Assembly: GCA_024679065.1 (NCBI GenBank)
Contig: JAGIQG010000024.1
Location: forward strand, 3,100,001-3,164,000
Direction of reading: 5' to 3'
Length of the DNA: 64,000 nt
Source: Sphyrna mokarran
Taxonomy: Eukaryota
Shown: positions 1 through 57,756 of the stretch, in pieces
Layout: each line of letters starts with the position of its first letter
How positions within the stretch are numbered: position 1 is the first letter of the stretch
Program-made: the position numbers and the translations under genes
Notes under the pieces: generated by a model
Seen by the model: only the letters and a program-made list of their open reading frames with translations
What the model was told of the DNA's origin: nothing
Database searches by the model: none

Positions 1-3000
1 GAAAGAAGGGCACCTGTATAGAAGGGACGGGGAACACTTAAATGGGAAGGGCGTGAATATCTTAGCTGGGAGGTTAGCTGGAGTGTTTTGGCAGGATTTA
101 AACTAATATGGAGGGGGGAGGGGCTGAGACTGATAGCTCGGTAGAGAGTGAGATGGGAGATAGAGTAAGCTTGGATGAGAAGAAATACACCAGGGAGAAG
201 GAGGTTCCGAGTGGGCTTGGAGATCTGGAGTGTGTCTGTTTCAATGCGAGGAGCGTAACAGGAAAAATGAATGAACTTAGGGCCTTAATGTTTGCGAGGA
301 ACTTGGATGTGGTTGCAGAGACGGAGATGTGGTTAAAGGAAGGGGAGCAGTGGCAGCTGAACATTCCTGGGTATAAGTGTTTCAGGCGTGACAGAGAAGG
401 GTCCAGAAGAGGTGGAGGAGTGGCATTGTTAGTTAGGGAGAGCATCACAGCGGTGCAGAGGAAGGACAATTCAGAGGAGTTAGGAGTGGAGTCGCTGTGG
501 GTGGAGTTGAGGAATAAAAAGGGGGTGATTACTATGCTAGGGCTGTACTATAGGCCACTCAACAGCCCGCCGAAGAAGACATATGTAAAGACATTTTGGA
601 TAGGAGCAGAAAGAACAGAGTCGTTATAGTGGGAGATTTTAATCTCCCTAGGGTGGATTGGAAAGTACATAGAGCTGGGGGTTTGGATGGGGAGGAATTT
701 GTAAAATGTGTACTGGAAGGATTATTGGAGCAGTATGTAGCTAGCCCGACTAGAGAAGGGGCTATATTGGATTTAGTTCTGAGTAATGAGCCAGAGCAGG
801 TGGTTGATGTTGTAATAGGGGAACATGTGGCTAACAGTGACCACAATTCTGTCTATTTTAGGATACAGATGGAAAAGGATGCTTGTTGCCGAGGGACAGG
901 GTGCTGAATTGGTGGAAGGCTAACTACGGTCGGATTAGGCAGGAACTTATGGAAACTGATTGGGAACGGTTGTTCAAGGGTAAGTCCACGCTGGGCATGT
1001 GGGACTTTTTCAAGGGAATACTGAAAATGTTGCAATAAAGATATGTGCCGGCCAAGAGGAAAGACAGGAAAGGTAGGATTAGAGAGCCGTGGATTACTAG
1101 GGATATCGAGGACTTGGTTAGGAAGAGAGGCGTATGTTAGGTCAAAGCAGCTGGGAATGGAGAGAGCATTGGAGAAATATAGAGAGAATAGGAGGGAGCT
1201 CAAACGGGGAGTTAGAAGGGCAAAAAGGGGGCATGAAATGATTTTGGCGGATAGGATTAAGGAAAATCCAAAGGCTTATTACTCCTATGTTAGAAATAAA
1301 AGGGTGGTTAGAGGAAAAATCGGACCTCTTAGGGATAGAGCAGAGGAACTGTGGTTAGAGCCCAAGGGAATGGGGGAGATCCTGAATGAATACTTTGCGT
1401 CGGTATTCACGAAGGAGAAAGCCTTGTTGACCGGTCCCATCTCTGAGGGAGCTGTAGACTAGTTGAGGGAAATATCAATACTGAGGGAAGGAAGTGTTAG
1501 AGCTTCTAGGTAGCATTAAAATTGATAAATCTCCGGGGCCTGATGGCATATATCCCAGGCTGTTTACTGAGGCACAAGGTGAAATTGCTGGGCCTCTGAC
1601 GCAAATCTTTGTCTCTTCTTTCGACACAGGTGAGGTTCCAGAGGACTGGAGAATAGCTAATGTTGTACCGTTGTTTACAAAGGGTAGTAGGGATAACCCT
1701 GGAACTTATAGGCCGGTGAGTTTGACGTCAGTGGTAGGGAAGCTATTGGAGGGGATTCTTAGAAATAGGATGCATAGGCACTTAGAGTGTTGCAATTTGA
1801 TTAGGGATACGCAGCACGGATTTGTTAAGAGGAGGTCGTGTCTTACGAATCTGGTAGAATTTTTTGAGGTGACGAAAATGGTTGACGAAGGGCGAGCCGT
1901 TGATGTCGTCTATGTGGATTTCAGTAAGGCGTTTGACAAAGTCCTTCATGGGAGGTTAGTTGAAAAGGTCAAGGCTAATGGGATACAAGGACAGGTAGCT
2001 AGATGGATAAGTAACTGGCTTGGTAATAGGAGACAGAGAGTAATAGTGGAAGGATGTTTCTCTAGCTGGAGGTCGGTCACTAGTGGTGTGCCGCAGGGCT
2101 CGGTACTGGGACCTCTTCTATTTGTAATATATATAAATGACTTGGAAGAGGGAGTAAGTGGAGTGATCAGCAAGTTTGCAGACGATACAAAGATGGCTGG
2201 ACTTGCAGATAGTGAGGAACATTGTCAGGCAATGCAGCAGGATATAGATAGGCTGGTAGCTTGGGCAGACAGATGGCAGATGGAATTCAATCTGGATAAG
2301 TGCGAGGTGATGCATTTTGAGAGAAAGAATGTAGTGGGGAGGTATATGATAAAGGGTAGACCTATTAGGAGTATAGAAACGCAGACGGACCTGGGGGTGC
2401 AGGTCCACAAGTCTCTGAAGGTGGCAGAACAGGTGGAGAAGGTTGTGAAGAAAGCATATGGTATGCTAGCCTTTATAGGAAGGGGTACAGAGTACAAGAT
2501 CTGGCCTTTAATCTTGCAGTTGTATAAAACATTGGTTAGACCTCATTTGGAATACTACATCCAGTTCTGGTCGCCTTACTACTGGAAGAACGTGGAGACT
2601 CTGGAGAGAGTGCAGAGGAGATTTACCAGGATGCTGCCTGATATGGAAGGTCTGAGTTACGAGGAGAGGTTAGGCAAATTGGGGCTGTTTTCCTTAAAAA
2701 GATGTAGACTTAGAGGAGATCTAACAGAGGTGTACAAAATTATGAGGGGTAGAGATAGAGTAAACAGGGTTAAGCTTTTTCCTAGGATGGACTCAAAAAG
2801 CACGAGGGGTCATGGGCTTAAGGTCAGGGAGGTAAGGTATAATTTGGATGCTAGAGGGAGTTTTTTTTCCACACAGAGGGTGGTAGGGGTATGGAACACA
2901 CTGCTAAGTAAAGTGGTGGAGGCAGGCACTCTGGAGTTATTTAAGAGATACTTAGATGGGCACATGAACAGAATGGGAATGGAGGGATATAGAAAACTGA

Positions 3001-3469
3001 TTTAAAATAGGGATCATGAGCCTTGGGAGTCCCTGGAAAGTGTGTAAATAGATGATGATATTGATGTACTTGTTTTTATCCTACAGGTGCTTTGGTCCAC
3101 CTTGTTGTCTAACAAGGGGCATATACACGATGGGTCGTGAGAGGGCTGCTCTTGGATTTTTTTTGAGAGTATCCTAATGCTTCACATCGTTAGTGTACGC
3201 TTGACCTGGACCATTTGATGGGCAACATGACAGCTCAGTGACTATTGCTGTGCTGTGCAGATACGTAGATTTGGGCCTGTGTCTGTGGGAGTTTGCGCGT
3301 TCTCCCTGTGCTTGCCTGGGTTTTCTCCAGGTATTCCAGTTTCCTCCCACATCCCAAAAGATGTACTCTTAGGCTAATTGGCAGAACAAATTCTCCCTAA
3401 ATTGTCTCAAATTTGGTTTCAATCCATAGATCTATAAAAAATAGATAGGAATCACAGGTAGAGGTAGGA
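1..3469 (+). mobile_element. CR1-clade LINE, long copy running off the left edge (end of ORF1, frameshifted ORF2, long composite 3'UTR)
   Basis: 2-106 encodes an SGNH-esterase-like ORF1 end (DGEHLNGKGVNILA, stop 104-106). ORF pieces 108-629 and 596-907 give the APE endonuclease (CFNARS, GDFNLP, SDHN). 1494-3005 gives the RT (GVPQGSVLGP, FADDTK, RGHGLK). The 3'UTR 3006-3469 matches 57225-57690. Confidence 0.95.
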
Positions 3470-3520
3470 TAAATGAGGTGGTAGCACATAAGCAGGTGAA
3501 GGCAAGAGATGTGATGCAGG

Positions 3521-4960: not shown

Positions 4961-5479
4961 TCATTGGGTCTCAGACCAGGATGGGATAAAGGATAGGAGT
5001 TTTGGAAGGGCTGGAATTTATATAGGGAGCAGGATTCCAAAATCGCAAAGAGGGAGAGAGAGTGATGGAGAGACAACAAGAAACATTGCAGTATTCTAGT
5101 CACAATTGTCTAGAGTCAAAAGGTATTTAAAAGCAAAAAAAAGTTTGTTAAAAATCACAAATTCAAACATGCAGCTGTTCTTTCATGATCTTGGAAACTG
5201 ATAAATATCAATAAAATCAGCCGTTTAGACTTATGATACTGAAATAGAAGCTATATGAAAATAAGAATCAATTTGTAGAAGGACTATTTCTGTTTTTAGC
5301 AACCAAAACTGTGACACATCACTCACAGAAACCTGGGGGACAAACTAGAAAAATGCAGCTGGTTCCTACATTTCATGTCAATTCATTGTTCTCCATTAAG
5401 GTGTAGTAATTCAGCACTGCATTACAAGACAACATGAGCTTCAGAATATAGAGTGTGTCAGATATACAAGTGAACCTAC

Positions 5480-5764
5480 CTTTAGAAAGGCCAAATGTTC
5501 GAGAGACTGATTGATGTAGTACATCATTCCTTAATCTAAATGTGTAGTTAGAACTTCTATTGGCATCACTGACTTCCAGAATACTCTGCAGTGAATAGAG
5601 ACCATCTCCACTTTGCTGGTATAAAGTCTCAGACAATGGAGAAATATCCTTGTTTTCGTCATTGTACCAGGAAACGGAAGCTTTGGGATAACCTTGGGAT
5701 TCAAATTTGAACACTGTCCCAGAAGGTCTCAGATGAATAGAAAAATCAGGTTCCTTGTAAAATG
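5480..5764 (-). CDS. B7-family gene exon 3: IgC-like domain lacking cysteines
   Basis: Acceptor ccctgcag, donor G|gtaggt, 285 nt, phase 1-1. AFYKEP...FESQGYPKASVSW...DGLYSLQSIL...NYTFRLRN follows the B7/butyrophilin C-domain pattern. Confidence 0.9.
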
Positions 5765-6863
5765 CTGCAGGGCAAATGCAGACAAGTCGTCAGAAACAAG
5801 AAATAAACAAAATTATGCCAACTAGGGTCTCCCCCATTAATTACCATAATTGAATGCAATAAAAAAAAAAATGTTCAAATGACAAGTCTGAGTACAAACA
5901 GATCAGTGACAGTTAGTGATCAATTTGTAAAGATGTTTAAACCACAAATTAATAATGTAGCCATAACATTACTATAATATCCAACAGGCTGCTGTTAGAG
6001 CAGATTCAGTATTGAGTAGAATACTGTTCAGCAGTTTAGATTGCCACTGATGGACATTAAGATATAGTCAAACAGGGTTAAAATCAGCTACTCATGTTCA
6101 ATTGGAACTGACTTTTTATATGGTGACAGCACCCCAGCAGACGAAATGACCTATAACTGCTGAATGGGCTGCCTGTAACTCTTCTTGAAAATAAAGAGAG
6201 TCTCTGAGCAGCTGGCTGAGTGTGCTGTTTTTTAATGTTACCCAGTCACTCGTTAGACTGATGGGCACAAATATCAACTTGTGATTTCACAACTACTCCC
6301 ATGACTCCGGATTACTATCCTCCCAGCCAGAACTGGCAGCTTCTGAACTCAATTTTATCAATCTAGCAGATGGGAAAATGTAAATGAGTTTTAGGAAATT
6401 GGATCTGATCATTAAATCCACAAGATTCACCACATTTCACTGGAATTCTATCATGAGATTTAGAATACAAATTGAAGCATGTGTTTACTCCTTCCATTCC
6501 TGATATTTTCCCTCCCCTTGCTCCTGTAAGAGTTTGAAGCTTTGCTGGGGTAAACAGTGTCATGTTCAATTAGTTAAATCATCATCATTCATATACGCAA
6601 CTCTCAATATTCACCTATGATGGCTACATCAGCTTAATGATGTCCAATTGGTAAAGTGAACAGCCAATAGGGGAGTTTCCACCTTAAGAGACATGGCAAG
6701 GTCAGCCAATACCCTGTTGGGAGTAGAGAGGAGCTAAACCCTGTGACAATCCACTTGGTCTGTACTGCTTACTTTAGACACTCACTCACTGGATCATTGC
6801 AGGTTACCAAGAAGCATGATTTTGATATACAGCACAGAGACCCAAAAAAATAGAAAGAAGTAC

Positions 6864-7217
6864 CAGCAAATATTAGAGACAGCGTGTCGTGGCCACCTCC
6901 CTTTGTATTACTGACAAAGCACTTGTATTGTCCAGCATCCTCTGCTCTCACTCCTTCCAGCTTCATTGAGGCATTCCCGTGTTTTAATTCCTCATGGAAT
7001 AAGCTTGTCCTCCCCGAATAACGAGAGCTTTGGTGACTCAGTTGCTCTTTCCCATAATAATAACTAAAAACAACTTCCTCAGTCTCGACTCGTTGCCAAT
7101 TGATGACCAATCCATCGAGTGACGATTTATCCTGAACTGTAAAGCTACATCCCAGCACTGTATACTGGCCATAGATAGCAGTCACTGGGGTCTCTGAGGT
7201 ATAAACCCTAAATTCAG
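6864..7217 (-). CDS. B7-family gene exon 2: IgV domain (CD276/VTCN1/HHLA2-like)
   Basis: Acceptor tttcttcacag, donor G|gtactt, 354 nt, phase 1-1. LGCSF, INWQ, YSGRTSLF, GNASMKL and EDAGQYKC are typical B7 IgV motifs. Confidence 0.93.
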
Positions 7218-8119
7218 CTGTGAAGAAAAAAAAAAGCGAATATAGGAGGTTTATTGCAAAAATCAGTTTAAGGACAGTTAATCTGACCATATTTAACCTT
7301 GAACACATCAAAAAAAACAAACAAACTGCAAATTATTTCTCTGCTTTCTCTCTTCTCTTCTCCCCTTCCTCTGATGGAAGGATATTTCCTGATACGTTGT
7401 CTCACCGATTCACTCAACAAGCTCACCTGAACGTTACAGGAACTGAACTGGTCAAGGTCATTGCCCAGCAATCAGGACAGGACCCAAAATCCATCTTTTT
7501 AAACTTACTGTAGCCAGAGGACTCCAGGCTTCCCGTTCCCTTGCAGTCCAATTCAATCCTGCCCCAATTTAAAATTTGTTAGGACAGACTATGCAACAAG
7601 TCTAGTATCTCCTTGTGTGCGTGCCTGGTGTCAAAGCAGGGTCTCTGTCCATCCTGAGGGAGGACAGAAAGTTTGGAAATTGATGGGAATATTAAAATAA
7701 ACATGGAATGCTGAGAGAGGACAAGGAGCAGATAAATAACTTCCACACATGTGACAGAGGGTACCAAAAGCCCAAATATAAAATCAATATAATAAATATT
7801 AGCTGAATAACCATGAATGTACTAACACCATTGAAGGAAAGAGTAATGATTGAAATGCCTGATACAGGGGGATTGGACTGGATAATTGGTTAAATATTGG
7901 TCTCTCAACTCTGCGATTAGGGATGAATCCAATCCAAGTTGAGAATCTTCATGAATCGATACCATTTGCAGAATTTTAACCGTTTCCCCTCCAGATCCCA
8001 CTGACCACGAACGCGATATAAAACTGCCCCAAATTAGCAATCTCACTTCAAGTTTCACAGGCTGAGTAAGATCATTGGAGGGAAAATGTTTGAAATGCTC
8101 TAGACTGATTAGATTGAAC

Positions 8120-13137: not shown

Positions 13138-15257
13138 AACAAAGAACAAAGAACAAAGAACAAAGAACAACACAGCACGGGAAACAGGCCCTTAGGCCCA
13201 ACGAGCCCACGCCGCCGTCCTAACGTCTTAATGACATATCCTTGACCTTAGGCTATGCCTATCGTTGAAGATTCCCATATAGGGACCAATATAGGGACAA
13301 TTTGTTACCCAATCAGCCTAAGAGCACATTTTTGGGATGTGGGAGGAAACCGGAGCACCCGGAGGAAGCCCACGCAACCACGGGGAGAACGCGCAAACTC
13401 CCGCAGACACGGGCCCAAATCCATGTGTCAGCACAGCAACAGTGATAGTCTCTGAGCTGTCATGTTGCCCATCAGATGGTCCAGTTTAAGCATACACTGA
13501 CAACGTGAAGCACTAGGCAACTCCTGAAGCAACCTCCAAGAGCAGCTCTCGCATGACATGCCACATGCATGCCCCTTGTTGGTCAACAAGGTGGACCGAA
13601 TTGCCTGCGGAAACAAATAAGACTTAATTAAACATGCTAAAAAAAAACTAAGACATTCCCGAGATGAAACTAAAAGATAGTCTACTACTATTTGGTCCTC
13701 CCGATGTTCAAACAGTCCTGCTATATCCCTTTATCTGCAGACCGCTCATGTGGCTGTCCAAGAGACCCTTAAACAACCGTAGCATGCCTGTTCCCACCAC
13801 CTTACTCAGCAGTACATTCCACACCCCCACTACCCTTTGTGTGAAAAACTGGCCTCTAATATTCGTCTTATACATAGCCCCCTGAGCCCGTGACCCCTCG
13901 TTCTATCCATTTCTAATGGTGGAAAAAGCTTACCACCATTTACTCTATCTATACCCCTCATAATCTTATATACCTCTAAAAGATCCCCTCTCAGCTGACG
14001 TCTTTCAAGGGAAAACAACCCCAATGTTTTCAATCTTTCCTCGTAAGACAGCCCTTCCATACCAGGCAGCATCCTGGTAAATCTCCTCTGCACTCTTTCC
14101 AGGGCCTCTACATCCTTCCTGTAGTACGGCGACCAGAACTGGACGCAGTACTCCAGATGAGGCCTAACCAACGTTCTATACACCTGCAACATCAGACTCC
14201 TACTCTTGTATTCTATACCTCTTCCTATGAAGGCTAACATACCATATGCTTTTTTTACCACATTCTCCACCTGTACTGACACCTTCAGAGACCTGTGAAC
14301 TTGCACTCCCAGGTCTCTCTGCATCTCTATACTCCGGATAGTTTTACCTTTTATCCTATAACTCCCCTCTACATTATTCCGGCCAAAATGCATCACCTCG
14401 CATTTATCCTGATTAAATTCCATTTGCCATCTATCTGCCCAATCTAACAGCCTATCTATGTCCTGTTGTATTGCCTGGCACTGCTCCTCAGTCCCCGCCA
14501 ATCCAAGTATCTTAGTGTCATCAGCAAATTTGCTGATCACACCACCTACCCCCTCTTCCAAGTCATTTATATACACACAAATAGAAGGGGTCCTAGTACA
14601 GAGCCCTGTGGCACACCACTAGTGACAGACCTCCAGTTGGAAAAAGAGCCTTCCACTACTACCCACTGTCTCCTCCTCCCAAGCCAGTTCTCAACCCATC
14701 TACATACCTGGCCCTGTATCCCATGCGCCTTAACCTTTTCTATCAGCCTACCATGAGGGACCTTATCAAACGCCTTACTGAAATCCATATAGACGACATC
14801 AATGGCTTGTCCTTCATCAACCGTTTTTGTCACCTCTTCAAAAAATTCCACTAGATTCGTAAGGCACGACCTCCCCTTAACGAAGCCATGCTGCGTATCC
14901 CTGATGAGATCGCAGCGCTCCAGATGCTCATACATCCTGTCCCTGAGAATCCTCTCCATTAGCTTACCTATAACTGAAGTCAAGCTCACCGGCCTATAGT
15001 CCCTGGGTTATCCCTCTGACCCTTTTTAAACAACGGTACTACATTTGCAATCCGCCAGTCCTCTGGGACCTCCCCTGTGTCCAAAGAAGAGACAAAGATT
15101 TGCGTCAGAGGCCCAGCAATGTCATCCCTCACCTCCCTTAGCAGCCTGGGATAAATACCATCAGGCCCCGGAGCTTTATAAATCTTTATGCTACCTAAAA
15201 GCCCCAACACTTCGTCCCTCGTAATGATTATTTCCTTTAACGGGTCCACAAATTCCT
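13138..15257 (-). mobile_element. 5'-truncated CR1 LINE with composite 3'UTR, nested in an older CR1
   Basis: RT ORF pieces 14986-15249, 14567-14989 and 13830-14576; (GTTCTTT)n tail at 13138-13170; flanked by attaggaa / attagaaa (TSD-like). Confidence 0.92.
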
Positions 15258-18753: not shown

Positions 18754-19096
18754 ATATATTAGAGAATTAGACAATACCATAATGTAGTTTATTGAATATG
18801 TTGTAATAATCGTTCATTGAGTTACTAAAAAAGAAAACATTGAAAAACTTCATATCAGTAAAACTCTTGCTATTTACTTCTCTTTTTAAAAGGGTAGCCT
18901 CTATTTTGGGGGTTGGTTTCATCCTGAACCCTCACCGAAGCCCACACCCAATATTCACAGGCGAATGGGTTTTGATAGAGATGAAAGCAGCTATTTGACT
19001 GCTTGGGGCATCACAGTCATTGAGACCAAAAAGTCAGCTCCACTCCGCCCACTATTGATGTCATCGCCCGGTGTCCCTGACAGCCACCGCCGGAGT

Positions 19097-19521
19097 GGGG
19101 GGGGGGGGGGGGGATGGCGGGGGCGGGGTCGGGACCGGGCCGGGGTCTAGGGTCGGGGTCGGGACCCGGGGTCGAGACCCGGGGGTCGGGACCCGGGGTC
19201 TGGGGTCGGGAGTCCGGCGTCTGGGGTCGGGGGTCCGGGTCGGGACCCGGGTCTGGGGTCGGGGGTCCGGGGTCGGGACCGGGGTCTTGGGTCCGGGTCG
19301 GGGTCTGGGCCGGGGGTCCGGGGTCGGGACCCGGAGTCTGGGCCGGGGTCGGGGGTCGGGGGTCCGGGGTCTGGGGTCCGGGGTCTGGGGTCCGGGGTCA
19401 GGACCCGGGGTCTGGGCCGGGGGTCCGGGGTCGGGACCCGGGGGTCGGGGGTCCGGGGTCTGGGGTCCGGGGTCAGGACCCGGGGTGTGGGCCGGGGGTC
19501 CGGGGTCGGGGGTCGGGACCC
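19097..19521 (+). repeat. G-rich satellite of GGGGTC(C/T)/GGGACCC units preceded by poly-G
   Basis: About 425 nt built of GGGGTC, GGGGTCC, GGGGTCT and GGGACCC units, with extreme G skew. Confidence 0.95.
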
Positions 19522-19669
19522 GCTCCCTGTCTTTGTTCTTGTTTCATTTTGAAGCCGGAAGCTGCAATTCCGGCATTCACCGGGGGTGGTGCTATCGGTG
19601 ATATCTGCACATGTGCAGCAAGTGCTCCCCCTAGTGTTGTAACAGGCATACTGCAGGACTCAGCATCAG

Positions 19670-19960
19670 ATACAGCAGCACAGTTAGACCATTCAGCCCA
19701 TCGAGTACCCTCTGCCATTGGATCATAGCTAACATGCTCCTCCTGCCCTTTTTCCTGCCTTCTCCCCATAAACCTTCAACACATTACCAATAAAAAATCT
19801 GTCTAACCCCTTAAATTTACTCACTGTCCAAGCGTCCACTGCACTTGGAGGCAGCAAATTTGACAGATTCACAACTCTTTGGGAGAAGTAGTTTCTCCTC
19901 AACACTATTTTGAATTTGCTATTCATTATCCTAAGACTATGACCTGTCACCGTAGAATGC
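19670..19960 (-). mobile_element. CR1 3'-end fragment
   Basis: TGHSLRI...RNYFSQRVVNL peptide and CR1 tail. Confidence 0.8.
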
Positions 19961-22764: not shown

Positions 22765-25700
22765 GCTGTTATTTGTCCATTGTCATCGATAAGGACCTTA
22801 ACACCATTAGTCATTTTGAGGCTGGTTGTGGTATGTCCGAAGATGACTGATCAGGCCAATTCGGACACGGAATGTCCTGGCAAATATTGGACAGACTTGT
22901 GTAGACACTGTAGTTGTTGTGCTGGTGGCTCTGGATGTGCAGCTCATGCTTAAGTTGTGCTTCAGCAATACACCTTGCTTCGTAAGCTTGACAGCCTTTG
23001 GGGATGAGGCAGCACCAGGTAGGGCGGTTTTGAACCAGCATTTCCCAGGTGGTCGTGTCAATGTCAAGCAATTTCAAGGAGGCTTTGAATGTGTCTTTGA
23101 AACGTTTCTTCTGCCCTCCATGCGAATGTCTTCCAGCAGAGAGTCCCTCAAAAAGGAGCTGCTTGGGTGTGCGCTCGTCTGACATACGGATGACATGACC
23201 TGCCCACCGGGTCAGCGTTCTCATCAGCAGTGTGTGGACTGATGGTAGACTTACTCTAGAGAGAACATCAATGTCTGGTACTTTGTCTTGCCATCTGATG
23301 CGTAATATTCTGCGAAGACAAGTCATGAAGAAATGATTGAGTTGTCTTGCATGCCTTCGATACACAGACCACCTTTTACAGGCATACAGGAGGGTAGTGA
23401 GTATTGCAGTGCTGTAGACCTTCAGTTTTGTTGCTGAGCTGATTCCTCGCCGTTCCCATACAGTGGAGCATAGTCTACCGAAAGCAGAACTTGCCTTTGC
23501 TATTCTGCAGTTAACTTCTGCATCAATAGTCACTGCTTGGGGGAGGGTGCTGCTAAATGAACTGTAGTTTCTGCCCTTTGATTATGATTATGGATTCTGT
23601 GTAAGTTGCATGAGGAGCAGGCTGGTCTTTTTAATGTTGATGGTGAGTCCAAAGTTGTCACAAGTTGTAGAAAATTTGTCCATACTGACTTGCATCTCTG
23701 GCTCTGAGCCAGCATACAGAGCGCAGTCATCTGCAAAGAGAAAATCTCTCAGAACAGTTTCTTTCACTTTGGTAATAGCTTGAAGTCTCCTCAGATTGAA
23801 AAGCTTCCCATTCACACTGTACTTGAGGCTGATTCCAGCAACACTGTCCTGGAAGGCATCATTCAGCATGGCAGTAAACATCATGCTGAACAGTGTGGGT
23901 GCGAGCACAAAGCCCTGTTTGATGCCATTGGTGACTGGGAATGCCTCAGAGGATTCTCTGCCATCCAGTACTTTGGCCATCATGCCATCATGGAATTGGC
24001 GTACCATCTGAATGAATTTGGAGAGGTGTGATACTCCACAGGCCTTGTCGGCTTACAGTGTCAAAGGCTTTTGCGAGATCAACAAAGGTTGTGTAGAGCT
24101 TGTAATTCTGCTCCTGACACTTCTCCTGAAGTTGCCGTGCAGCAAAAATCATCTCTGTATCCCACGACTTTTGCAGAAGTCACACTGTGACTCTGGAAGG
24201 AGGTCCAACTCCAGATGAGTGACAGCCGATTTAGTAGGACTCTTGCAAGGGTCCTTCCTGTGATGGAGAGCAGCGAGATTCCTCGGTGGTTATCACATAA
24301 TTGCCGATTGCTCTTCCTTTTGTACAGGTGTACGATGGAAGCATCTTTAAGTTCCTGAGGAATGGATCCTTGCTTCCAAAAGGACTGGAACAACTTGGTG
24401 AGCTGCTTGATAAGTGCAGGACCAGCAGCTTTATAGGATCTCAGTGGGTCTGGCATCTGCCCCAGGGGCTTTGCCACTGGATAGCTGGCTGACAGTTTTC
24501 ATGACTTTGACTACTACAGGTGGGTCATCCATGGCGCTGTTGATAAGAACCTGGGGAATCCTGTCATTTGCCTCATCGTTAATAGATGACGGTCAGTTGA
24601 GGACAGCTTCAGAGTGTTCAGCCCATCTCTGCAGGACCTGAGCCTTCTCTGGAATGACAGTTATACCATCTGTACTCAGGAGGAGGAACTCCCGAGAGAT
24701 TGAGGTTCATAGAGAGTGTTGAGGGCTTCATAGAACTGTTTCAAGTCATTTTTGTCAGTGTATCCCTGTATTTCATCTGCCTTGGTGCTCAGCCAAGCAT
24801 CCTGCATTTTACACAGTTTATTCTGGACTGTCCTGCGAGCACTGGGAAAAGCATTTTTCTTAGCAGCTGAAGATGAGTCGTTCTGACAGGCCCGATGAAG
24901 ACGGTGCTTTTCAACAGCCTGTATCTCCACATCATTCTCATCGAACCAATCATGCTGTTTGTGGGGTAGAGAGCCCAAGTATCTTCAGGGCAGATGTATG
25001 GACAGCATCCCTGAAGTGTTCCCAGTCATCCTCAGTGCTGCCTGCGAGGTGTGGGTCAGCAGGTTTGATTTCTAAGTCTTCAGCCAGTACTGAAGCTATG
25101 CTGGGGTTCTTTAGCTTGGCCGCATTGATTCTTTTCATAACCTTGCTTCCTTGGGATTGCCTCTTGGTCTGATGCAGAGCCTCATTTTGGAGACAGTGAG
25201 CCTGTGATCTGTCCAGCAGTCAGCACCACACACGGCCTTGGTCACTCTGACATCCTGCCTGTCTTTTCTCCTGACAATGACATAGTCGATAAGATGCCAA
25301 TACTTAGATTGAGGGTGGATCCAGGAGGTCTTGTTATGGGTAGGCAGACAGAAGGTTGTGTTGGTGATGAGGAGGTCGTGACCTGCACAGGTCTTCATTA
25401 AGTGTAGGCCGTTACTATTATACTTGCCCACTCCATGCCTCCCAATGACTCCCTGCCAGATTGCACAGTCACACCCTACTCTTGCATTGAAATCTCCAAG
25501 TAAGATCAGCTTTTTGGTACTGCTCACTGTTGATATTAGGGCATCTAGTTCTTTGTAGAACTTGTCTTTCATCCTGTCTGGGTTGTTTATTGTGGGGGCA
25601 TAGGCACTGACCAGGGTAGCTTGACTTCTGTTGTGTAGTGGAAGCTGTAAACAGGTTGTTCACAACCTTGGGTAGACTAGCAAGTTTCTGAACAAGATGA

Positions 25701-26722
25701 TTCCTGACGGTGAATCTAACTCCAGCATCACAACGCTCATCACTGCCACGACCACTCCAGAAAATAGCATATCCACCTCCAGTTTCAGTCAACTGACCTA
25801 TGTTAGCAAGTCGAATTTTGCTCAGGGCTGAAATATCAATGTTGTGTCTTGCAAGCTCTCTGGCAACTAAGGCTGTTCTCTCTGGTTTTCTACTGTAGGA
25901 TTGTCCAGAAGCGGTGCACGTTCCAAGTGCCAAGGGTGAGCGGTGTCACCTTGTGTTTTATTTTGTTTGTTTGACCGCAAGATGGGACTAGATACAATAA
26001 ACTGGCCAGGGTGTAGTGAAGCAGGCAATGTTTAGGGCACCTTTTTGAGCCCCTTCCTCGTTCTACGGAGGTGACCTGAAGAGGACTGCTCAGTCACCCA
26101 GGTAGACGCTGAGTTTCACTGCTGCTTCGATCAGCAGAAAACGACCATTAGACTTGAGCCACCTGCGTGCAGTTCGGTGCTGACAGCTCCCAGTGTATCC
26201 ATACCTGCTGCTTCATCACTCACCCATCGCCACAGGACTTCAAGGGTTGAACAGGACATTGATGTTGATGATGATGGTGTCAAAACTAGCGCTTGATTTG
26301 GATTAAAGTGAGGGAGATTTGTGCAGCATCAGCCTCACTCTCTCTTCTCAATTCCCATCTAGGTCCAGTGGCAAGACAAGAGTCAAGATGGCTGGAGATG
26401 GGATTAGGCACAGTGGGTGATCAGGACATTTTCTGTGTCTTGTTCTGCTCTTCATGTTCCACTTGTAGAGACCATCTTCTTGACTGTTGGATCTTCCGTT
26501 GGTCTCGTCCGCTCAATGCGCCGGACTCTCTCTTCACATGCTGGGATAGACATCTCTCTATCTCACCGAGGGTTGAGACCCGTCAGCTACCCTCACCTGG
26601 TTTAGCTGGCTTGTCGAGGCCGTTGCCCAGGGAATAGCTGCTGTCGTATACAAAGAGCTCCGGGGAGCCACAGGTGAGAGCCGAGTCCCAGCTGGTGATA
26701 AAGGGCGGACAAACTGCCCTGA
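22765..26722 (-). mobile_element. near-full-length, frameshifted RTE-clade LINE (~3.95 kb)
   Basis: LGTWNV...ERTALVARELARHNIDI, LGDFNARVG and WTDHRL (APE); NHRGISLLS, GIKQGFVLAPTLF and LFADD (RT); RIAKASSAFGRL, RWAGHVIRM and GGQKKRFKD; ~770-nt 5'UTR. Confidence 0.92.
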
Positions 26723-35895: not shown

Positions 35896-36206
35896 CAAAG
35901 AACAAAGAACAAAGAACAAAACAGCACGGGAAACAGGCCCTTCGGCCCAACGAGCCCGCGCCGCCTCCTCGATGTTCCCACTTGTACCCGTGATCCCTGT
36001 CCATGTTTATAGATCTATGGATTAAAAACCAAATTTGAGACAATTAAGGGAGAATTTGTTTTGCCAATTAGCTTAAGAGCACATCTTTGGGATGTGGGAG
36101 GAAACTGGAGCTCCCGGAGAAAACCCACGCAAGCACGGCGAGAATGCGCAAACTCCCACAGACACAGACCCAAATCCATGTATATGCACAGCACAGCGAT
36201 AGTCAT
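35896..36206 (-). mobile_element. severely 5'-truncated copy of the composite CR1 3'UTR (V-SINE part plus tail)
   Basis: Reverse complement of 57458-57755; (GTTCTTT)n tail. Confidence 0.85.
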
Positions 36207-49048: not shown

Positions 49049-49271
49049 TCAGTCCTCATGGTGACTGTCAGATTTGTGGCCACTCAGTGACCTGGATTTC
49101 GATCTAGACCTGGATCTTGAATGGCTGCATGACCTTGATTGCGATCGTGTCTTAGAATCCTTTCTGGATGCCGATTTTGATCTTGAAACAGACTTTGATC
49201 TGGATCGGGACCTGGATCTAGATCGGGACCTGGATCTAGATCTGGAATAAGAACGATGGCGACGCCTGTGC
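49049..49271 (-). CDS. SRSF10: SRSF10 last coding exon (RS domain)
   Basis: Acceptor ttatttctag, phase 2; RHRRRHRSYSRSRSRS...SDSHHED*. Confidence 0.88.
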
Positions 49272-49893
49272 CTAGAAATAACGAGCAGTTTGTTACACAA
49301 TGTAAGATTCCATTTTAAGTAAAACAGATCAAGTTACCAGCAAATACATAGCTTTCCTCTTTCATTCTGCTTTTTTTGCTACGTCCTACATCGGTCTATC
49401 TCTACACTAGCAAAACTCTACTTGGCAATTAGAAACCAAACAAAAAATAAATAGGATGAGGGGAAAAACAGCAAAAGTAGAAAGCTTATGGGTACTGGGG
49501 CAGAGAATGTGCAAAGGGTAGCTTACGTATAAAAGGACATGAACAAACTTGGAAGAGATAAGAACCAAGAACGCCAGGAGGAATGCTTTCCCTTAAAATA
49601 TAAAACTGCAAATACCACTCATGTGCATTTAGTAACTGTAGCTGCATTGGATAAGGAAACAATCAGAAACTCTAACTTCATTGCACACTAAAAATTCATA
49701 CTATTTCCTCTTGGACAGTATATTCTACAGAAGGCAGGTAAAGAGCCAAGCCTATCAATTTTTTCTCTAATGCAAAGTACTATAATTTGAACGATCTTGT
49801 GGCACTAATCTTAAAATAAAATCAACTTTATACTTAAAAAAAGCCCATAACACATCCTTTAGTTTTAGGCCAATGCAGTCTACGTGACCCTAC

Positions 49894-49953
49894 CTGTCAT
49901 TGAAAGAGTTACTACGGCTGCGTCTACGCTTTCCACTTGATCTGCTCCGTGAA
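49894..49953 (-). CDS. SRSF10: SRSF10 short RS exon
   Basis: tttttgtatgcag| ... AG|gtaggg; 60 nt; NSRSRSSGKRRRSRSNSFNDR, comparable to human NSRPTGRPRRSRSHSDNDR. Confidence 0.85.
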
Positions 49954-50040
49954 CTGCATACAAAAAACCGAATAAAGATCTGAGAAATATATTATGCTGA
50001 ATTTAGGATAAAACACAATATGCGTGTTATAATCACATAC

Positions 50041-50212
50041 TTTTTAGGGCTGTCAGACCTCCTGTGACTTCGCTCATATGAACGACTTCGAGATCGCCTT
50101 CTGTCATAACTTCGACTCCTGGATCTCCTCCGCCTATCATAGTCATCATAACGGTCATATCGTGGTGAACTTCGCGATGATCTTCGTTCCTTTGATTTCA
50201 TCTGACCAGGTG
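50041..50212 (-). CDS. SRSF10: SRSF10 exon (TPGQMKSKE...YDDYDRRRRSRSRSY...SPK)
   Basis: ctgactatag| ... AA|gtatgt; 172 nt; phases agree with the neighbouring exons. Confidence 0.92.
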
Positions 50213-50472
50213 CTATAGTCAGAAAGACAAAATTCTCAATTTTAGAACAGCAATCACTTGTTGAATACATCTTCCCTTTCCCTGCACTTCCAAATACAAG
50301 TTTCCCATGAAGCAAATGGGAATACTTTAGCAGCTTCAAAGTCAGCATGGACAACTAGTATTTTGTTATTCTACATCACCTACAACATATACTAGGCCTA
50401 ACATATACTAGGATACAGCTTTCCCAGAGTGGAGACTTTCATTCCAAAAAACTGCATAGACTTGCTTAGCTA

Positions 50473-50754
<282 letters not shown>

Positions 50755-51909
50755 TTAAGGGGGCTTTTCACTTTCACAGGTTTCGAACAAATCCTACAAT
50801 CTTCAATACACATTTTCAACCACAACATTGTTTTGCCAAAACTTAGAAAGTTTGTTTTTGTACTACATTTAAAATATACGATTCCAAAACTACATTACCC
50901 TATATAAATTCTTACAGAAAAATCTATGTTTAATATTACCAAAATGAGTCATAATTAAGGGTAATCCACCAAATTTAAGTGAATTAGATCTACAAGAAAA
51001 TGCAGAACAGCAATAAAGACAATATTACATCCTAATACTATTAGATTGTAACTACCCCATCACCGCATGAAATTAGATCAATAAAGCTTTTTCTGATCTT
51101 TTTAAAGTACGTTCTCATTCATTAATAAAATCAGATTTAGCAAAATGCTGCAAACAATTCAGTATTAACTTGTAAATAAATATAAATCATGTCATACAGC
51201 TGGTCAAAAACATGAAAATAACATTTAAGTGTTTCACTCCAGTAGGATGTATTCTTCCTTGGAGAGGAACTGTAATGATATGTCACAATAGTAATCACAC
51301 TGGAAAAGGGCAGAAGAGGCCTGCTTGTTGGGCAAGTGCCTTCCCATAGCTCACAGGCATCTGTAATGACTGTCAAGCCTTGCTTTAATTCACTAAGACA
51401 CCATCTATTAGTGGCTGCAATTGTAATTCTGCAGCACCTAACTGGTTTAGAAGTGGCTATGTAACTTCTAAGAAATGGAATATGAAAGCAATTTAAATCA
51501 AAGAAAAATTCAAATATGGGATTTTTAAAAAAGGAGATCCACTGATCTTTAGAAAAGTGACAATGGCAGAAACTAAGTGAAATCAAATGTCAAGAGCATT
51601 CTAAAGCCTTAAAAAAAAACTCATGTCCTCTATTTCGCACTTGTCATAGTCTCTCTGTTCAAGTCAACACAGCTGGAAACAAAAAAGGTCCAGAAAATGC
51701 TCCAAACAAAATTTTTGAAAAGAACATAAAGGAATGAATTTATCTGCAGCACTGAGACTTAAGATTTACCAGTTAAACGTTTCAATAAAGAACTGTATTA
51801 CACAAGGATTATTTAAGTTTGTAAAAATCACAATTAAAAACATAATATTTAAGAGCGAATGAATTGTTTTCACTATGGTAGGATACAACATCAGGACTTT
51901 GCTGGTTAC

Positions 51910-52244
51910 CTTAAATTTGGCTGTAAACTTGACCTTGCACCGTCAGCTTGACCTTTAACTCTTTAAGTGCTTGCCAGAAGGACTTGACATGAGGCGCTGG
52001 CCCAAATAAGACACTTGGCTTTGACTTTGACAAAACAACCTTTTTTCCAATTGCAGACAAATCGAAGCCTTGACTTTTTCCCTCTTCAAGCTTTAATCTT
52101 TTTCACCCTCCCTCTCTTTTCTTCAAGCCTGATCCTTAAGAGGTCTTTGGCTTGTCTGCTTGTCTTATGCTTGGATTCTATCTAAAAGGCTCTTTCATAC
52201 TTTCTTTGTGGGTTCGCCAGTTACAGCGGATTGCTTTAAATTTT
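51910..52244 (-). other. SRSF10: putative GA-rich poison (autoregulatory) exon of SRSF10 inside the minor intron
   Basis: Acceptor ctttttgttgttgttgcctcag|, donor AAG|gtaacc, 335 nt; stops in all three frames within 70 nt; purine-rich GAAGAAAAGAGAGGGAGGG tract. Confidence 0.7.
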
Positions 52245-52669
52245 CTGAGGCAACAACAACAAAAAAGTTATGTCAGGGGATGGGTATAAAAAGACAAACA
52301 TGCAGGGTTTGAAATCACTTTTTTGACTACCACCAAAATTAGCCAAAAAAGACACCAGCAAGTACGTTTTTTTTAAAACAAACAGCTAAAAGTTGTCACA
52401 TTTTCTATGAATTAGATGAACTTCTGATTAGAAATACATACCTTACAGCATAAATGTAAAGAGAGAAAAAATGTTAGACAAGCAAGAATGGGGTGCACTA
52501 CATAAATTCAGAACCAGCAAATCCCTGCAGCACCAACTCAACAAGCAGTACATGAGTTACACAAACTGGAGCAGTATGATTGTTTCTGCATTATAAGCAT
52601 AATAACCACTAATTTATTGAGTAAGTTTCCTAGTCCTGCCAAAACATTTATGTTAACAGGAACATTACA

Positions 52670-52955
52670 ACAACTTCATCTTGAAGTTTTAGTCGTAGGT
52701 AGGCTTACGTTAACGCTGCAATGAAGTTACTGTGAAAATCCCTTAGTCACCACACTCCGGGGCCTGTTTGAGTACACTGAGGGAGAATTTAGCATTAACA
52801 ATGCACCTAACCAGCACATCTTTTGGGCTATGGGAGAAACCCATGCAAACACAGGGAGAACGTGCAGACTTCACACGGATAGTGACCCAAGCCAGGAATC
52901 GAACCCAAGTCCCTAGCACTGTGATGATGCAGCAGTATTAACCACTGTGCCGCTG
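52670..52955 (-). mobile_element. HE1/V-SINE-like element
   Basis: gcggcacagtggttaatactgctgc...ggacttgggttcgattcctggcttgggtcact head and V-domain. Confidence 0.8.
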
Positions 52956-53899
52956 TTTACTGTCTTCATCTTTAATTTTAATATCTAGGTTGTTCCAAAT
53001 GAGCACCAAAATACTTACCACACAACATTGTTATGCAACAATCCTCAAGTTACTTCCTCCATTTTTTAAAAAAAGTTTTCGTACAAAAGTGTATTTTAAT
53101 GCTCTGTCTAATGTGCAGTATATAGAATAAAAATGAAAACCCATTAAACACCAATGATCTCATGGTAACTGACATGAAATTTTGTAGTATTTGAGACCTA
53201 CAGTTTCTCAAAATTGCACTACTATCGCAGTCTTCCTTGGACAAATGTTATACTCTCTTTAATGAAATTAAACTTATATAATCTGTCATTCCTTGATATA
53301 AAATTATCCAATGATTTGAATGTAAATAAACCAAAGCAGGAATTGAATTGAAACTAACTGATCTAAATATACTGCATACAATAAACATGTACAGGCATAG
53401 AAGTATGATCAGGCATGTTAAAAAGAGCATGCCAATTTTTAAATTTAAAATCTTACTCAAGTTTTGATTCTGTTTAAAGTCAAAATCAAGTGTTAAACAG
53501 CACTGATCCCATAATTTTGCATTTAAGATATCTGAATCTCTGGAAAAAAAATACTCTACCTTGATCTGTACAGTGTCAATTTATCCTCAAAAGGACTTGC
53601 CAAGAGATGAAATTCTCAATTCAAAAAAGTCACAGATCAGTTGAAAGATTTATTATTAGTCCAAATATTTACTGGGATTGGGGCTCAAAACTCCTTTTGA
53701 TACAGAATTCTGTCTCAACTCAAAATGATAACACAAGAGTGTGTCAGTGTATGTAACACTTGTATATAACCCACAGGCAAAGCAAGCATTCACTATTGGT
53801 GCACATAAACTAAACACATTCCTCTGGACAGCAAAGTAGATGTTTCAGTCAGGCAATGCAAACAGACTGCAATTATTGACTTCAGACCTGTAGTTAGTT

Positions 53900-54142
53900 C
53901 AAGATGTAGAGATGCTGGCGTTGGACTGGGGTAAACTCAGTAAGAGGTCTGACAACACCAATTTTAAATCCAACCGATTTATTTGATAGTAAAATTGCAA
54001 GCTTTCGGCCTTTGTAGCCTTCGTCAGGCAAATAAGGAAGGCTACATTCACCTGACAAAGGCTACAAAGGCCAAAAGCTTGCAAGTTTACTATCAAATAA
54101 ATTGGTTGGATTTAAAATTGGTGTTGTCAGACCTGTTACAGT
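53900..54142. mobile_element. inverted pair of Penelope-like pseudo-LTRs, each with a hammerhead motif
   Basis: 53940-54028 is the near-exact reverse complement of 54051-54139, with a 22-nt spacer. Confidence 0.85.
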
Positions 54143-56089
54143 TCAATGCAGCCTTTCACTGTCCACAACTAACTTCATTAACTTTTTTCCAAATGCTTTA
54201 AGTGACAATAAAAAATATTCTCAAAATACATAAGGAATTAAAAATATCACAGCAGGCCAATCAAGATTTTATGACTTGAATTTTGAATATGCAACTGTTC
54301 AAAGGGAATTGCTTATTTTTCAAAGCAAAGCTACAGGCCCTTCCCAAAATGCCAGCTGTAGAAAAATCTTGTGCTCAGCAAGATATTGCGGTACAACTAC
54401 AACAATGGTATCTAGCAGATGTAGAATATCACCCAGGTGTATTCTGCTCACAAGACAGAACTAGTTCAAGTCTGCTAGCTAGCATCTAATCAGCCCAAGC
54501 CTGTCATATGAAAAGTTTTCAGCAGCACTATCAAGGCAAAATGGCTCAATGATCTTCTCTTCATCAACTCAGCTTGGGTTTCACTAATCTGCCCAGCTCC
54601 AGAACTATTTACAGCCTTTGTTGAGACAAGGACATGAGCTGAATTATATTTAAGCCAACTGAATTGGGAGAAATTGTTCAGAAGCTAATATCATATGATA
54701 CAAAGAAATGCAGTAACTCAACTACATATCATTGCTGCAAGGTTAAACGATCTGGAGCTTTAACATCAACATTCCTTCCATAAGGAGTTTCTTACTTTAC
54801 TGATTATTGAAATGTTCAACTCAATTTGTAATTCCTCCGATGAAGCAGTAAAAACCTGACTGCAGCAAGGACTGGAGAACAGCCAGGTTTGGTGAATAGC
54901 ATGAACACTCGTGCCATGCGAGTGCCAGACAATGACTGTCTCCTGCATGATAGGCCAATTAATGGCATTAAACTGGCCAGAAGTCCATCAACATCCCAGA
55001 GAGTACCAAGAACCTGGAGTCCAACTGAGCCAATCATGTAATTTCTATGGTTGTTAGAGGTTCAAGACTAGGGATTTTGTGGCAAGTAGCTCACTTCCTT
55101 CCTACATTCTACACAGTAAGAGTCAGTTAAGTGTGATGCAATACTTCCTACTTGCTTGAACAGGTTGAACTGCAATAGCCAAGAAGCTGCTTGACTGGCA
55201 CCTCACAGATGAGCTTAAACTTTCATTGCTTCCACTACTGGCTGCAGTGTGTGCTACACACAGGATGCACTGCAGAAACTCATCATAAATTTTATGCCAG
55301 TACAAAGTGCAAGGAAATACTATCTTCATGTTGTACACAATGATGACTGGACAGCTATTGTTATTTTACTAGGTCAAATCAGTGGAGCTGCAAATCTAAG
55401 TGTTCAGATTTTCACTGAACTTGACCTCAATTTAAACTATTCAAAGATTTTTCCCATTCTAAAAATTTACATTTTTAGATTTTAGGAGAATGTACATTAC
55501 CAGAAGAATCCTCCTAAAACTAGTTCAGTTAAAAGTCACTAACAGGTTATGCAATGATTTGACATATTTATAAATGGAACATTTTGCAATATAACAAACA
55601 TTTATATTAGTCCCATTATGGAAATACAGTTTTCCCTCAGGAAGGTTGCTTCTGATATGTATACGTTAGCTTTTACAGAAGATTAGATCCAATCCCATTA
55701 TTCAATTTGGTGTAGCAAACAGTGCTACCTTCAGGTGGTCGCGGTATGTTTAACGTACTAGAAAGTGTGTGCATATCCATGACCAACTTGAAAATAAAGC
55801 TGTTTTTAAATTCAGAATACACAAACATGCCAATTCCCAGTATTTATGTTACAAAGTCCTGGTCCCTTTACTATACCTGACTACTGATTTATCAAATCCA
55901 TAAAAACTTATGTCTACAAATCTCAATGAATGCAGGGACAACAGCATATTGCAGGGTTACTCAACAAGGAATCCAAAGGCTAAGATTAATGATGTGGAGA
56001 TGCCTGAAGGAGGAATGACACTCCTAAAAGCTCATACTACCAAACAGACTTGTTATTTAACCTGCTGTTTTGAGACTTCTTACTAAGAT

Positions 56090-56410
56090 TAATAATGCAG
56101 CAAGTAGAGTTCAAATCTCACCATGACAGTTGGAGGAATTAAAATCAATAAATTGCTAGTCTTATCAATAATGAGTATTTTGCTATGTTTGTAATGAAAA
56201 ATTCATCTGATGAACAAACGTCCCACGGGGGAGAAAATCTGCACCATATCCTGTCTGGCCGACATGTGACTCCAGGGCTACAGCAATGTGGCCGAGTCCT
56301 AATTGTCCTAAAAATGACAGAATATCATTGGACAGTCACCATCACATATTCAAAAGACAAGTGGAAATGACCAATAAATGTCGGCCTTGTCAGTGGTGAT
56401 CACATTTCCA
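56090..56410 (+). mobile_element. decayed SINE
   Basis: B-box-like gttcaaatctcaccatgacag; tail caataaatgtcggccttgtcagtggtgatcacat related to the minus-strand piece at 46295-46350; related head at 9345-9480 (-). Confidence 0.5.
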
Positions 56411-56551
56411 AACCAAAATTAATAGAAAAAAATATTGAATTACATTTGCTCTTCTCAAGAGCAGACCAGAGGGGATTGGAGGAATTTACAGTGATATCGA
56501 ATTAGGGAAGCAAAAGGCTCACGCATCTGAATCTGTAATCATCCATACTTC

Positions 56552-57756
56552 TAGAAATAATGTAGGGGGGCGGTATATGATAAAGGGTAGACCTATTAAG
56601 AGTATAGAAACACAGAGGGACCTGGAGGTGCAGGTGCACAAGTCTCTGAAGGTGGCAGAGCAAGTGGAGAAGGTTGTGAAGAAAGCATATGGTATGCTAG
56701 CCTTCATAGGAAGGGCTATAGAGTGCAAGAGCTGGCCTTTAATGTTGCAGTTGTATAAAATGTTGGTTAGATCTCATTTGGAATACTGCATCCAGTTCTG
56801 GTCACCTTACTACTGGAAGGATGTGGAGACTCTGGAGAGAGTGCAGAGGAGGTTTACCAGGATGCTGCCTGCTATGGAAGGTCTGAGTTACGAGGAGAGG
56901 TTAGGCAAATTGGGACTGTTTTCCTTAGAAAGACGTAGACTTAGAGGAGATCTAATAGAGGTGTACAAGATTATGAAGGGTATAGATAAACAGGGCTAAG
57001 CTTTTTCCTTGGATGGACTCGAATAGCACGGGGGTCACGGGCTTAGGGTGAGGGGGGTAAGGTATAATTTGGATGCTAGAGGGAGTTTTTTCACACAGAG
57101 GGTGGTGGGGGTATGGAATGCGCTGCCAAGTAAAGTGGTGGGGGCAGGCACTCTGGAGGTATTTAAGAAATACTTAGATGGGCACATAAACAGAATGGAA
57201 ATGGAGGGGTATAGAAAACTGATATAAAATAGGGATCATGAGCCTTGGGAGCCCCTGGGAAGTGTGTCAATAGATGATGATATTGATGTACTTGTTTTTA
57301 TCCTACAGGTGCTTTGGTCCACCTTATTGTCTAACAAGGGACATACACGCGATGGGTCGTGAGAGGGCTGCTCTTGGATTTTTTTCGAGAGTATCCTAGT
57401 GCTTCACGTCGTTAGTGTACACTTGACCTGGACCATTTGATGGGCAACACGACAGTTCAATGACTATCGCTGCGCTGTGCAGATACATGGATTTGGGCCT
57501 GTCTCTGTGGGAGTTTGCACATTCTTCCTGTGCTTGTGTGGGTTTTGTCCAGGTGCTCCGGTTTCCTCCCACATCCCAAAGATGTGCTCTTAGGCTAATT
57601 GGCAAAACAAATTCTCCCTAAATTGTCTCAAATTTGGTTTTTAATCCATAGATCTATAAACAGACAGGGATCACGGGTAGAGGTGGGAACATCGAGGTGG
57701 CGGCGCGGGCTCGTTGGGCTGAATGGCCTGTTTTATGTGCTGTTTTGTTCTTTGTA
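56552..57756 (+). mobile_element. 5'-truncated CR1 with complete composite 3'UTR; same subfamily as 1-3469; antisense within the SRSF10 U12 intron
   Basis: ORF 56577-56999 is nearly identical to 2346-2770; the 3'UTR is nearly identical to 3006-3469 and continues to a gttttgttctttgt tail. Confidence 0.93.

Follow-up and report, generated by a model that had tools for sequence, protein, structure and literature searches.

A predicted RNA fold, an acceptor-like site and a captured SINE in the 3′ UTR of a CR1-type LINE lineage of Sphyrna mokarran

Why should a LINE without introns carry, behind its last reading frame, what looks like a 3′ splice site followed by a stretch of RNA that is predicted to fold? 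The question is raised by 64,000 nt of shark DNA (GCA_024679065.1, contig JAGIQG010000024.1, positions 3,100,001 to 3,164,000 of the forward strand), and by the window we mean this whole stretch. A sequence-only reading had pointed to three such blocks of about 120 nt, each in the 3′ UTR of a CR1 copy, and had proposed a selected RNA element, perhaps a ribozyme and perhaps reached by splicing.

The module and its CR1 lineage

The first copy, on the plus strand, is a nearly full-length element whose start lies about 890 nt before the window. The 3′ end of ORF1 occupies positions 1–106 (stop TAA at 104–106) and ORF2, the frame of which is broken in this copy, positions 108–3005. A single base separates the ORF1 stop from the ORF2 start (TAA T ATG, 104–110), an arrangement that suggests termination–reinitiation. 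ORF2 matches PF03372 and PF00078 above cut-off and encodes an AP endonuclease and a reverse transcriptase; ORF1 of a sister copy matches Lipase_GDSL_2 with an E-value of 3e-5 and 25 bits, below the curated cut-off of 32.9. We take the element to be a CR1, as the earlier reading did, in view of a terminal tail in common with the short-UTR families, the local tree setting it against two short-UTR window elements.

Behind the ORF2 stop (3003–3005) lie, in order, a variable spacer (3006–3060), an acceptor-like site (3061–3090), with a branch-like TTGAT at 3061–3065, a pyrimidine tract and CAG/GTGC divided at 3086/3087, the block (3094–3212) and a captured tRNA-derived SINE (3213–3490), which ends here without the terminal CR1 tail. 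The second plus-strand copy repeats this order, with the acceptor-like site at 57283–57312 (57308/57309), the block at 57316–57434, and at 57435–57755 the SINE head (57435–57496), its core (57497–57580), the diverged part and the CR1 tail. The third, more diverged copy is on the minus strand and has its acceptor-like site at 13604–13630 (13605/13604; branch-like TTAAT), its block at 13478–13597, and the SINE part, the CR1 tail and (TTCTTTG)n at 13150–13477. The three blocks, closed by GGTCCA and TGGACC, and the pyrimidine tract with CAG/G just before each of them are thus where the sequence-only reading had placed them, and the other CR1 ends of the window have short UTRs, as it had said. A fourth copy of the family, at 35900–36205 on the minus strand, is 5′-truncated, begins inside the SINE head and is without the block.

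One CR1 lineage carries the block as a constant component of its 3′ UTR. At all 60 loci fetched with two window types, the sequence continues collinearly along the CR1 3′ end. A covariance-model search of 1 Mb, in stretches picked regardless of their content, gave 21 strong hits and one chance hit; 19 of the 21 lie behind an ORF2 end and two are 5′-truncated. No free-standing block outside CR1 was found among either set, and extrapolation gives a family of about 58,000 block copies in the 2.77 Gb genome. Most CR1-like ends have a UTR of 60–100 nt with the same tail, and the block is present in at least 18 of 120 ends among those listed. An independently inserted repeat, which the earlier reading had named as the case that would count against it, does not describe the block itself; the sequence right behind it, by contrast, is a captured SINE.

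The copies fall into subfamilies A1, A2, B1, B2, C and D1–D3, with single E and F copies; the two plus-strand window copies with a block belong to A1 and the minus-strand one to B1. The sorting, by motifs and with at least one copy misfiled, took in 153 of 235 unique hits, the excluded ones being partial, low-scoring, near a locus edge or chosen by junction patterns. From stop to AG there are 81 nt in A1, 103 in B1, 21 in B2, 163 in C, 20 in D1 and D2 and 19 in D3, a range of 19–163 nt. The sequence upstream of the block had been called not alignable; on the contrary, every spacer aligns to the long C/F one as a deletion variant, and the acceptor was therefore inherited rather than acquired convergently. 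Throughout, the last ~19 nt on the block side are spared by the deletions. The idea that the spacer begins with a decayed CR1 tail finds no significant support (P = 0.30–0.92).

The far end of the element varies as well. A short oligo-A end replaces (TTCTTTG)n in 22 of 29 D2/D3 copies (e.g., L333:1471, L328:1462 and L345:1471) and in one of four D1 copies, in none of 77 A/B/C copies and in one of 27 short-UTR tails, and some D3 copies read TTAATAAAAAAA. Copies that match the D pattern exactly number 7,047 genome-wide.

Several neighbours may be recorded here. The first CR1 copy lies within a tandem segmental duplication of three units 40–48 kb apart (G000:C816:3015616, 3055096 and 3103060; L003, L002 and L001), which adjoins a butyrophilin/B7-like gene with IgV and IgC domains (5373–7332, minus strand). 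Positions 19017–19728 hold a GC-rich tandem repeat, both strands of which have open frames, and a decayed element with endonuclease and reverse transcriptase pieces, presumably RTE/BovB-like, lies at 22811–25945 on the minus strand. A gene with a PNRC motif (PF15365; 42504–42971, plus strand) adjoins an RRM/RS-domain, SR-protein-like gene (49100–60760, minus strand), which we take to resemble SRSF10. Inside the latter are two long, near-perfect inverted repeats, at 53960–54120 and 59490–59655 (about -101 and -116 kcal/mol), possibly MITE-like or fold-back elements and dsRNA substrates.

The predicted fold and the captured SINE

Against shuffles, the blocks of the three window copies fold with z-scores of -4.8, -3.2 and -4.1 in sense and -2.7, -1.6 and -1.2 in antisense. 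All seven subfamily majorities behave alike, with z from -2.2 to -6.8 in sense versus -0.3 to -2.9 in antisense (ORF windows, +2.3 to -3.6), and strong sense folding is also found in subfamilies whose blocks have 65–75% identity to that of A1. The predicted fold has a closing stem of 6–7 bp (P1), a hairpin of 7 bp (P2) and a long arm with internal loops, among them a conserved 4×4 internal loop. The proposal of a multibranched structure of about 120 nt is thus borne out as to a predicted fold of the sense strand; in shape, three helices meet at a junction, one of them being a long, interrupted arm, and the whole is not richly multibranched. In D2 and D3, P2 is lost and P1 lengthened, with z still at -6.8 and -5.7. 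At P2 two copies (L275 and L278) have fold-back inversions, and in another (L204:1452–1506) an internal deletion has brought ORF1 up against mid-block sequence at a common hexamer.

Hairpins that keep their pairing while their sequence changes had been pointed out in the earlier reading, and it is here that the case becomes weaker. The CCTTGTT/AACAAGG hairpin, P2, had been quoted as an example; its stem is identical in the copies compared, the 57 kb copy breaking one pair, and since the loop alone varies, this is not covariation. The other quoted changes are mostly one-sided, from Watson–Crick to G-U; in two pairs both partners do differ when the 3 kb and 13 kb copies are compared, at 46-102 through a CpG-type change in one copy and at 45-103 not. 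In an alignment of 15 copies, 91.3% of the cells are paired versus 89.1% when shuffled (0 of 500 shuffles as high), and seven pairs show double changes versus 3.8 (5 of 500); the shuffle ignores the relatedness of the copies, and two of the seven pairs are artefacts of the D rows in which P2 is lost. No double change falls in P1. Columns 41-110 and 37-114 show stepwise paths by way of G-U, and columns 47-101 and 62-87 show swaps. RNAalifold, which does not keep P2, assigns covariation -0.6 of -71.75 kcal/mol.

Paired columns change less often than unpaired ones (41 of 85 versus 17 of 23). Taking private mutations that arose after insertion as the neutral control, pairing is kept in 23 of 40 alternative states versus 77 of 195 private mutations (p = 0.053; non-CpG, p = 0.073). 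In the D lineage the block evolves as fast as fourfold sites or faster, with identities of 81% versus 85% between B2 and D2 and of 86% versus 97% between D2 and D3. Covariation comes out modest, above shuffles that leave relatedness aside and borderline against the neutral control, and a selected cis-acting RNA structure receives moderate support from the sense-only folding, the fewer changes in paired columns and the borderline keeping of pairs. We consider that the modelled fold is probably real but loosely constrained, and a loose constraint suits a binding platform or an insulator better than a catalytic core. Two further ideas were dropped after inspection by eye: a pseudoknot between the P2 loop and the junction strands is inconsistent over the subfamilies (alignment A3), and a coding role is opposed by stops in each frame and a T run of variable length.

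The block matches no Rfam family, and the earlier reading had recognised none: the Rfam covariance models give no hit in the window at the gathering threshold, and the best matches on the block, at 11 and 25 bits, are at chance level, the latter being to a miRNA model with a cut-off of 80 and reflecting the hairpin shape only. The core of the hammerhead consists of CUGANGA and GAAA, and that of SECIS elements of RUGA with an AA loop, and C-D snoRNAs have boxes C and D. The hammerhead core is absent from the sense strand of all seven majorities. For twister-sister, the loop strand GCUCA occurs as GCTCA in the SINE head only, and its partner GC(U/C/A)AG is absent from the sense strand. HDV-like ribozymes combine a nested double pseudoknot with copies that begin where cleavage falls; by motif inspection the block shows no L3-like motif in sense, and the 25 sampled copies have no common 5′ end. 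The SECIS and C-D snoRNA motifs are missing from the majorities and find no match in Rfam, and resemblances to Y RNA, SECIS, CTE and snoRNA were set aside on the same motif and Rfam checks.

Conservation does not stop with the block. The SINE copy begins eight bases behind it and comprises an A-box remnant, a conserved core and a diverged 3′ part before the CR1 tail. Its origin is clear from the stand-alone SINE, which is abundant (142 core hits per Mb) and the majority sequence of which aligns with the head, core and 3′ part of the captured copy, establishing homology to a tRNA-derived SINE. The B box, 18 nt, is deleted in the four subfamily majorities aligned and was kept in one old copy only (L155:2921). 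We take the captured SINE to be of the V-SINE/HE1 type. The name fits a table row of PMC3747384 in which the shark HER1 LINE is paired with the HE1 V-SINE, and PMC5499810 describes conserved SINE domains as functionally unexplained. A1 and B1 are 65% identical at fourfold sites, against 82% in the block, 90% in the head of the SINE, 95% in its core and 64% behind the core. Since the head and core exceed the block, the selected unit must be larger than the block, which is its less conserved half; the unit proposed earlier, 3066–3215, stands as far as the block is concerned and falls short in that conservation runs on past 3215 into the SINE.

The acceptor-like site and the search for spliced products

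For the acceptor we used a rule that was written after seeing the sequences (YAG/G, at least 11 pyrimidines of 14, no AG in the tract, and a branch-like motif). All seven subfamily majorities pass it, against a background of 153 sites on both strands of 1 Mb of random DNA (0.077 per kb per strand). In simulations of four lineages, neutral retention has a probability of 0.012–0.10 with the branch term and of 0.07–0.27 without it, and the identity of the acceptor region between A/C and B/D, 61–68%, is that of neutral sequence. In B2 and D a branch-like motif is found again at about -20, overlapping the ORF2 stop codon. Because the AG lies only 19–21 nt behind the stop in these subfamilies, any donor must come from an ORF, from the 5′ UTR or from a host gene. 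ORF2 has two strong donor-like sites, AGG/GTAAGT and CCG/GTGAGY, which are conserved in A, B and C, the second also in short-UTR families; a donor 30 nt into the 5′ end of the window copy is not conserved and was rejected. AATAAA and ATTAAA are absent from six of the seven majorities, a hexamer being present in 16 of 155 copies, so that a poly(A) site would mostly have to come from flanking DNA.

The 5′ UTR has signals of its own. In full-length copies (L186, L173, L206 and L268) its ~330 nt contain a pyrimidine tract and AG; ~100 nt upstream of the AG, C, B and one A variant also have GTGAG, which resembles a donor, as in a short intron. None of 27 A-type 5′ ends is a spliced copy.

That the block is reached by splicing, or traps host exons, finds no support in the retrocopies. 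Four genome-wide searches for junctions at the AG, with patterns that cover part of the possible donors, gave 192, 25, 9 and 2 matches. Among 100 listed matches of the first pattern, 33 have foreign sequence upstream, judged by eye, and no 9-mer occurs twice; the rest are small deletions or duplications. Follow-up of 22 loci and of all 25 matches of the second pattern gave mostly ordinary truncated insertions. The B/D pattern has 9 matches (control, 1) with no recurrent upstream sequence, and the last, for joins from the two conserved ORF2 donors, has 2 matches genome-wide, neither of them from a donor. One retrocopy (L256 = L280) joins ORF2 exactly to the acceptor, at 6 nt of microhomology. 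Retrocopy groups of the SpIRE or SVA type, joined at the acceptor to one donor exon, were not found with these patterns.

Among the matches listed, recurrent upstream sequence at the AG is confined to two pairs of AG-truncated copies (L284:1518–1700 with L283/L297, and L281 with L285), in which the upstream flank is common and the downstream flank is not. Judging from these flanks, the pairs fit 5′ transduction of host-driven read-through RNA; the twin junction of L283 and L284, considered as a trapped exon, has its upstream sequence at those two places only and fits 5′ transduction likewise. Of the rows listed for the RNA contigs of four runs, over window positions 1–3250, none puts a joint or loose end at 3086/3087; 39 joints and 1,046 loose ends lie outside that listing, and the contigs are evidence neither way. 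Contigs of run X6, from another organism, cover the block bins and those of run X10 do not, and a gap in the contigs proves nothing. Within the SR-protein-like gene, the 57 kb copy sits in an intron but in antisense orientation, and hence cannot trap the transcript of this gene.

Possible roles and known systems

We propose, at a probability of roughly 0.4, that acceptor, block and SINE form a captured and selected cis-module of the unspliced LINE RNA, predicted to fold, which would aid the finishing of this RNA and its handing on for copying. An ancestral CR1 may have read through into, or template-switched onto, the end of a host intron and the exon behind it; the fold would have come with the exon, as would a SINE that had a CR1-type tail, and the resulting chimera would have been copied as one unit, followed by loss of the B box and by selection on the RNA. 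U2AF and U2 would bind the branch, pyrimidine tract and AG without excising an intron, and recognition of the acceptor would mark the last ~460 nt as a terminal exon, favouring 3′-end formation and export. The fold, starting 7 nt behind the AG, would leave the site exposed and might act as a protein-binding or insulating stem. What was observed in support is the order of the module, its presence in every sampled subfamily, the SINE downstream, the predicted sense folding and an acceptor kept through the spacer deletions. On this reading the acceptor would likely act through recognition and not through cutting: a motif retained without spliced offspring fits such a role, and recurrent spliced retrocopies are not expected from an acceptor that acts without excision.

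It is tempting to go further and to suppose that the decoy 3′ splice site, a fold not described before and a domesticated V-SINE core let an intronless LINE mimic a terminal exon and recruit the early spliceosome without splicing, so that its own RNA, and host RNA that runs into truncated copies, would be finished and retrotransposed. We regard this stronger version as improbable. If true, it would be a new LINE strategy and would provide a direct assay for the unexplained V domain.

A doubtful but serious alternative to the selected cis-module is that acceptor and block are relics of the capture, left from a host intron/exon boundary, with selection falling chiefly on the head and core of the SINE and the block surviving as a self-folding spacer under loose constraint. 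The better conservation of head and core, the neutral divergence of the acceptor region, a P2 that is dispensable in D2 and D3, the borderline covariation and a neutral retention of up to 0.27 without the branch term all agree with a relic; strong sense-only folding kept in all seven subfamilies, deletions that spare the tract, and a branch-like motif again at about -20 in B2 and D do not. True splicing, from ORF2 or host donors to the acceptor, would produce RNAs that lack ORF2 or carry trapped exons and that are degraded (e.g., by nonsense-mediated decay) and seldom copied. Such sites are used by L1 and SVA (PMC5860796; PMC6139936), and the two conserved donors and the one exact join speak for it; we think it distinctly unlikely, however, given the microhomology at that join, the zero joins from the conserved donors, one of which also occurs in short-UTR families, and nine B/D junction matches with no recurrent upstream sequence versus 7,047 exact D-pattern copies. 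Moreover, AG-truncated copies were apparently mobilised in trans, and spliced RNAs could therefore have been copied.

Two further readings have less in their favour. The site might be a recursive, or ratchet, splice point, with CAG/GYRMTT acting as an acceptor and then as a donor, so that sense copies in introns would be skipped harmlessly. The match to the U1 consensus at 7–8 of 9 positions in full-length A, B and C copies is in keeping with this, but the G at +5 is never present, B has GC and A1 GTGCTT, and the element would gain no clear benefit over having no acceptor. AG/GT is also the plain consensus of an acceptor, which we count against the ratchet, and on the whole we hold it to be very unlikely. 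Hardly credible, and the least probable reading of all, is a new self-cleaving ribozyme or nuclease substrate, such as a Microprocessor-like hairpin, that cuts the LINE RNA. A stable fold of ~120 nt, the conserved 4×4 loop and the one weak hairpin-shape match to a miRNA model would suit cleavage; no known catalytic core was found, the fold tolerates many mismatches and even the loss of a whole helix, 25 sampled copies have their 5′ ends at scattered positions with no site in common, and by a rough estimate the density of junctions at the block start is near the general truncation rate. The ribozyme suggested at the outset thus has neither an Rfam match, a hammerhead or twister-sister core, nor a discrete 5′ end among those 25 copies to recommend it.

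The selected cis-module would matter because LINE 3′ UTRs are thought, in the passages cited, to be important mainly for a short terminal stem-loop that is read by the reverse transcriptase (PMC3747384). Here a lineage of tens of thousands of copies kept a further module of ~300 nt through ~0.3–0.4 substitutions per neutral site. Two questions come with it, the role of conserved SINE cores and the use by a LINE of splice-site recognition without splicing. Since the element is autonomous and comes with natural variants (spacers of 19–163 nt, P2 present or lost, B box present or lost, a microsatellite or an oligo-A end), both can be tested by a retrotransposition assay. In the literature we found no published description of a module of acceptor, block and SINE; it may be catalogued in Repbase or Dfam, which the search did not cover.

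We know of no LINE in which a terminal acceptor couples to 3′-end formation. In human cells, a terminal acceptor of the beta-globin gene does so without excision of an intron (PMC3737548), and an acceptor near the 3′ end of the shark RNA could, in the same manner, act without intron removal; the beta-globin case, as described there, has a poly(A) signal, whereas most of the shark CR1 subfamilies are without a poly(A) hexamer. The twister-sister-like “lantern” ribozyme of human LINE-1 is likewise a structured RNA with internal loops inside a LINE, but the opposing loop strands that it requires are absent from the shark block (PMC11620745).

With the canonical vertebrate CR1 LINEs, which have an esterase ORF1, the element has in common an ORF2 with endonuclease and reverse transcriptase, a putatively GDSL-like ORF1 and 5′ truncation (PMC13343379), and its terminal tail is the same as that of the short-UTR CR1 families of this genome. 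It differs in its 3′ UTR, which measures 440–590 nt rather than 60–100 nt and contains the acceptor-like site, the block predicted to fold and the body of a SINE, as far as the passages cited describe such elements (PMC13343379; PMC3747384). MER6/MER6A is a DNA transposon that carries a headless V-SINE; there, too, the V-type SINE core travels on another mobile element and has no functional Pol III promoter, although in the shark the carrier is an autonomous LINE, its RNA contains the module, and the block and acceptor are added upstream (PMC6887750). The L1 SpIREs and the exon trapping by SVA_F1 and pt_SVA_D6, with spliced retrocopy groups of 84 and 94 members, also involve a splice-acceptor signal in a non-LTR element, and 5′ transduction is seen here too; the spliced retrocopy groups that define them did not appear in the shark CR1 searches (PMC5860796; PMC6139936). 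Overall, our analysis leads us to regard the system as a CR1-type LINE that has captured a SINE, in which it is comparable to MER6, and that has an acceptor comparable to those of the L1 SpIREs and of SVA exon trapping.
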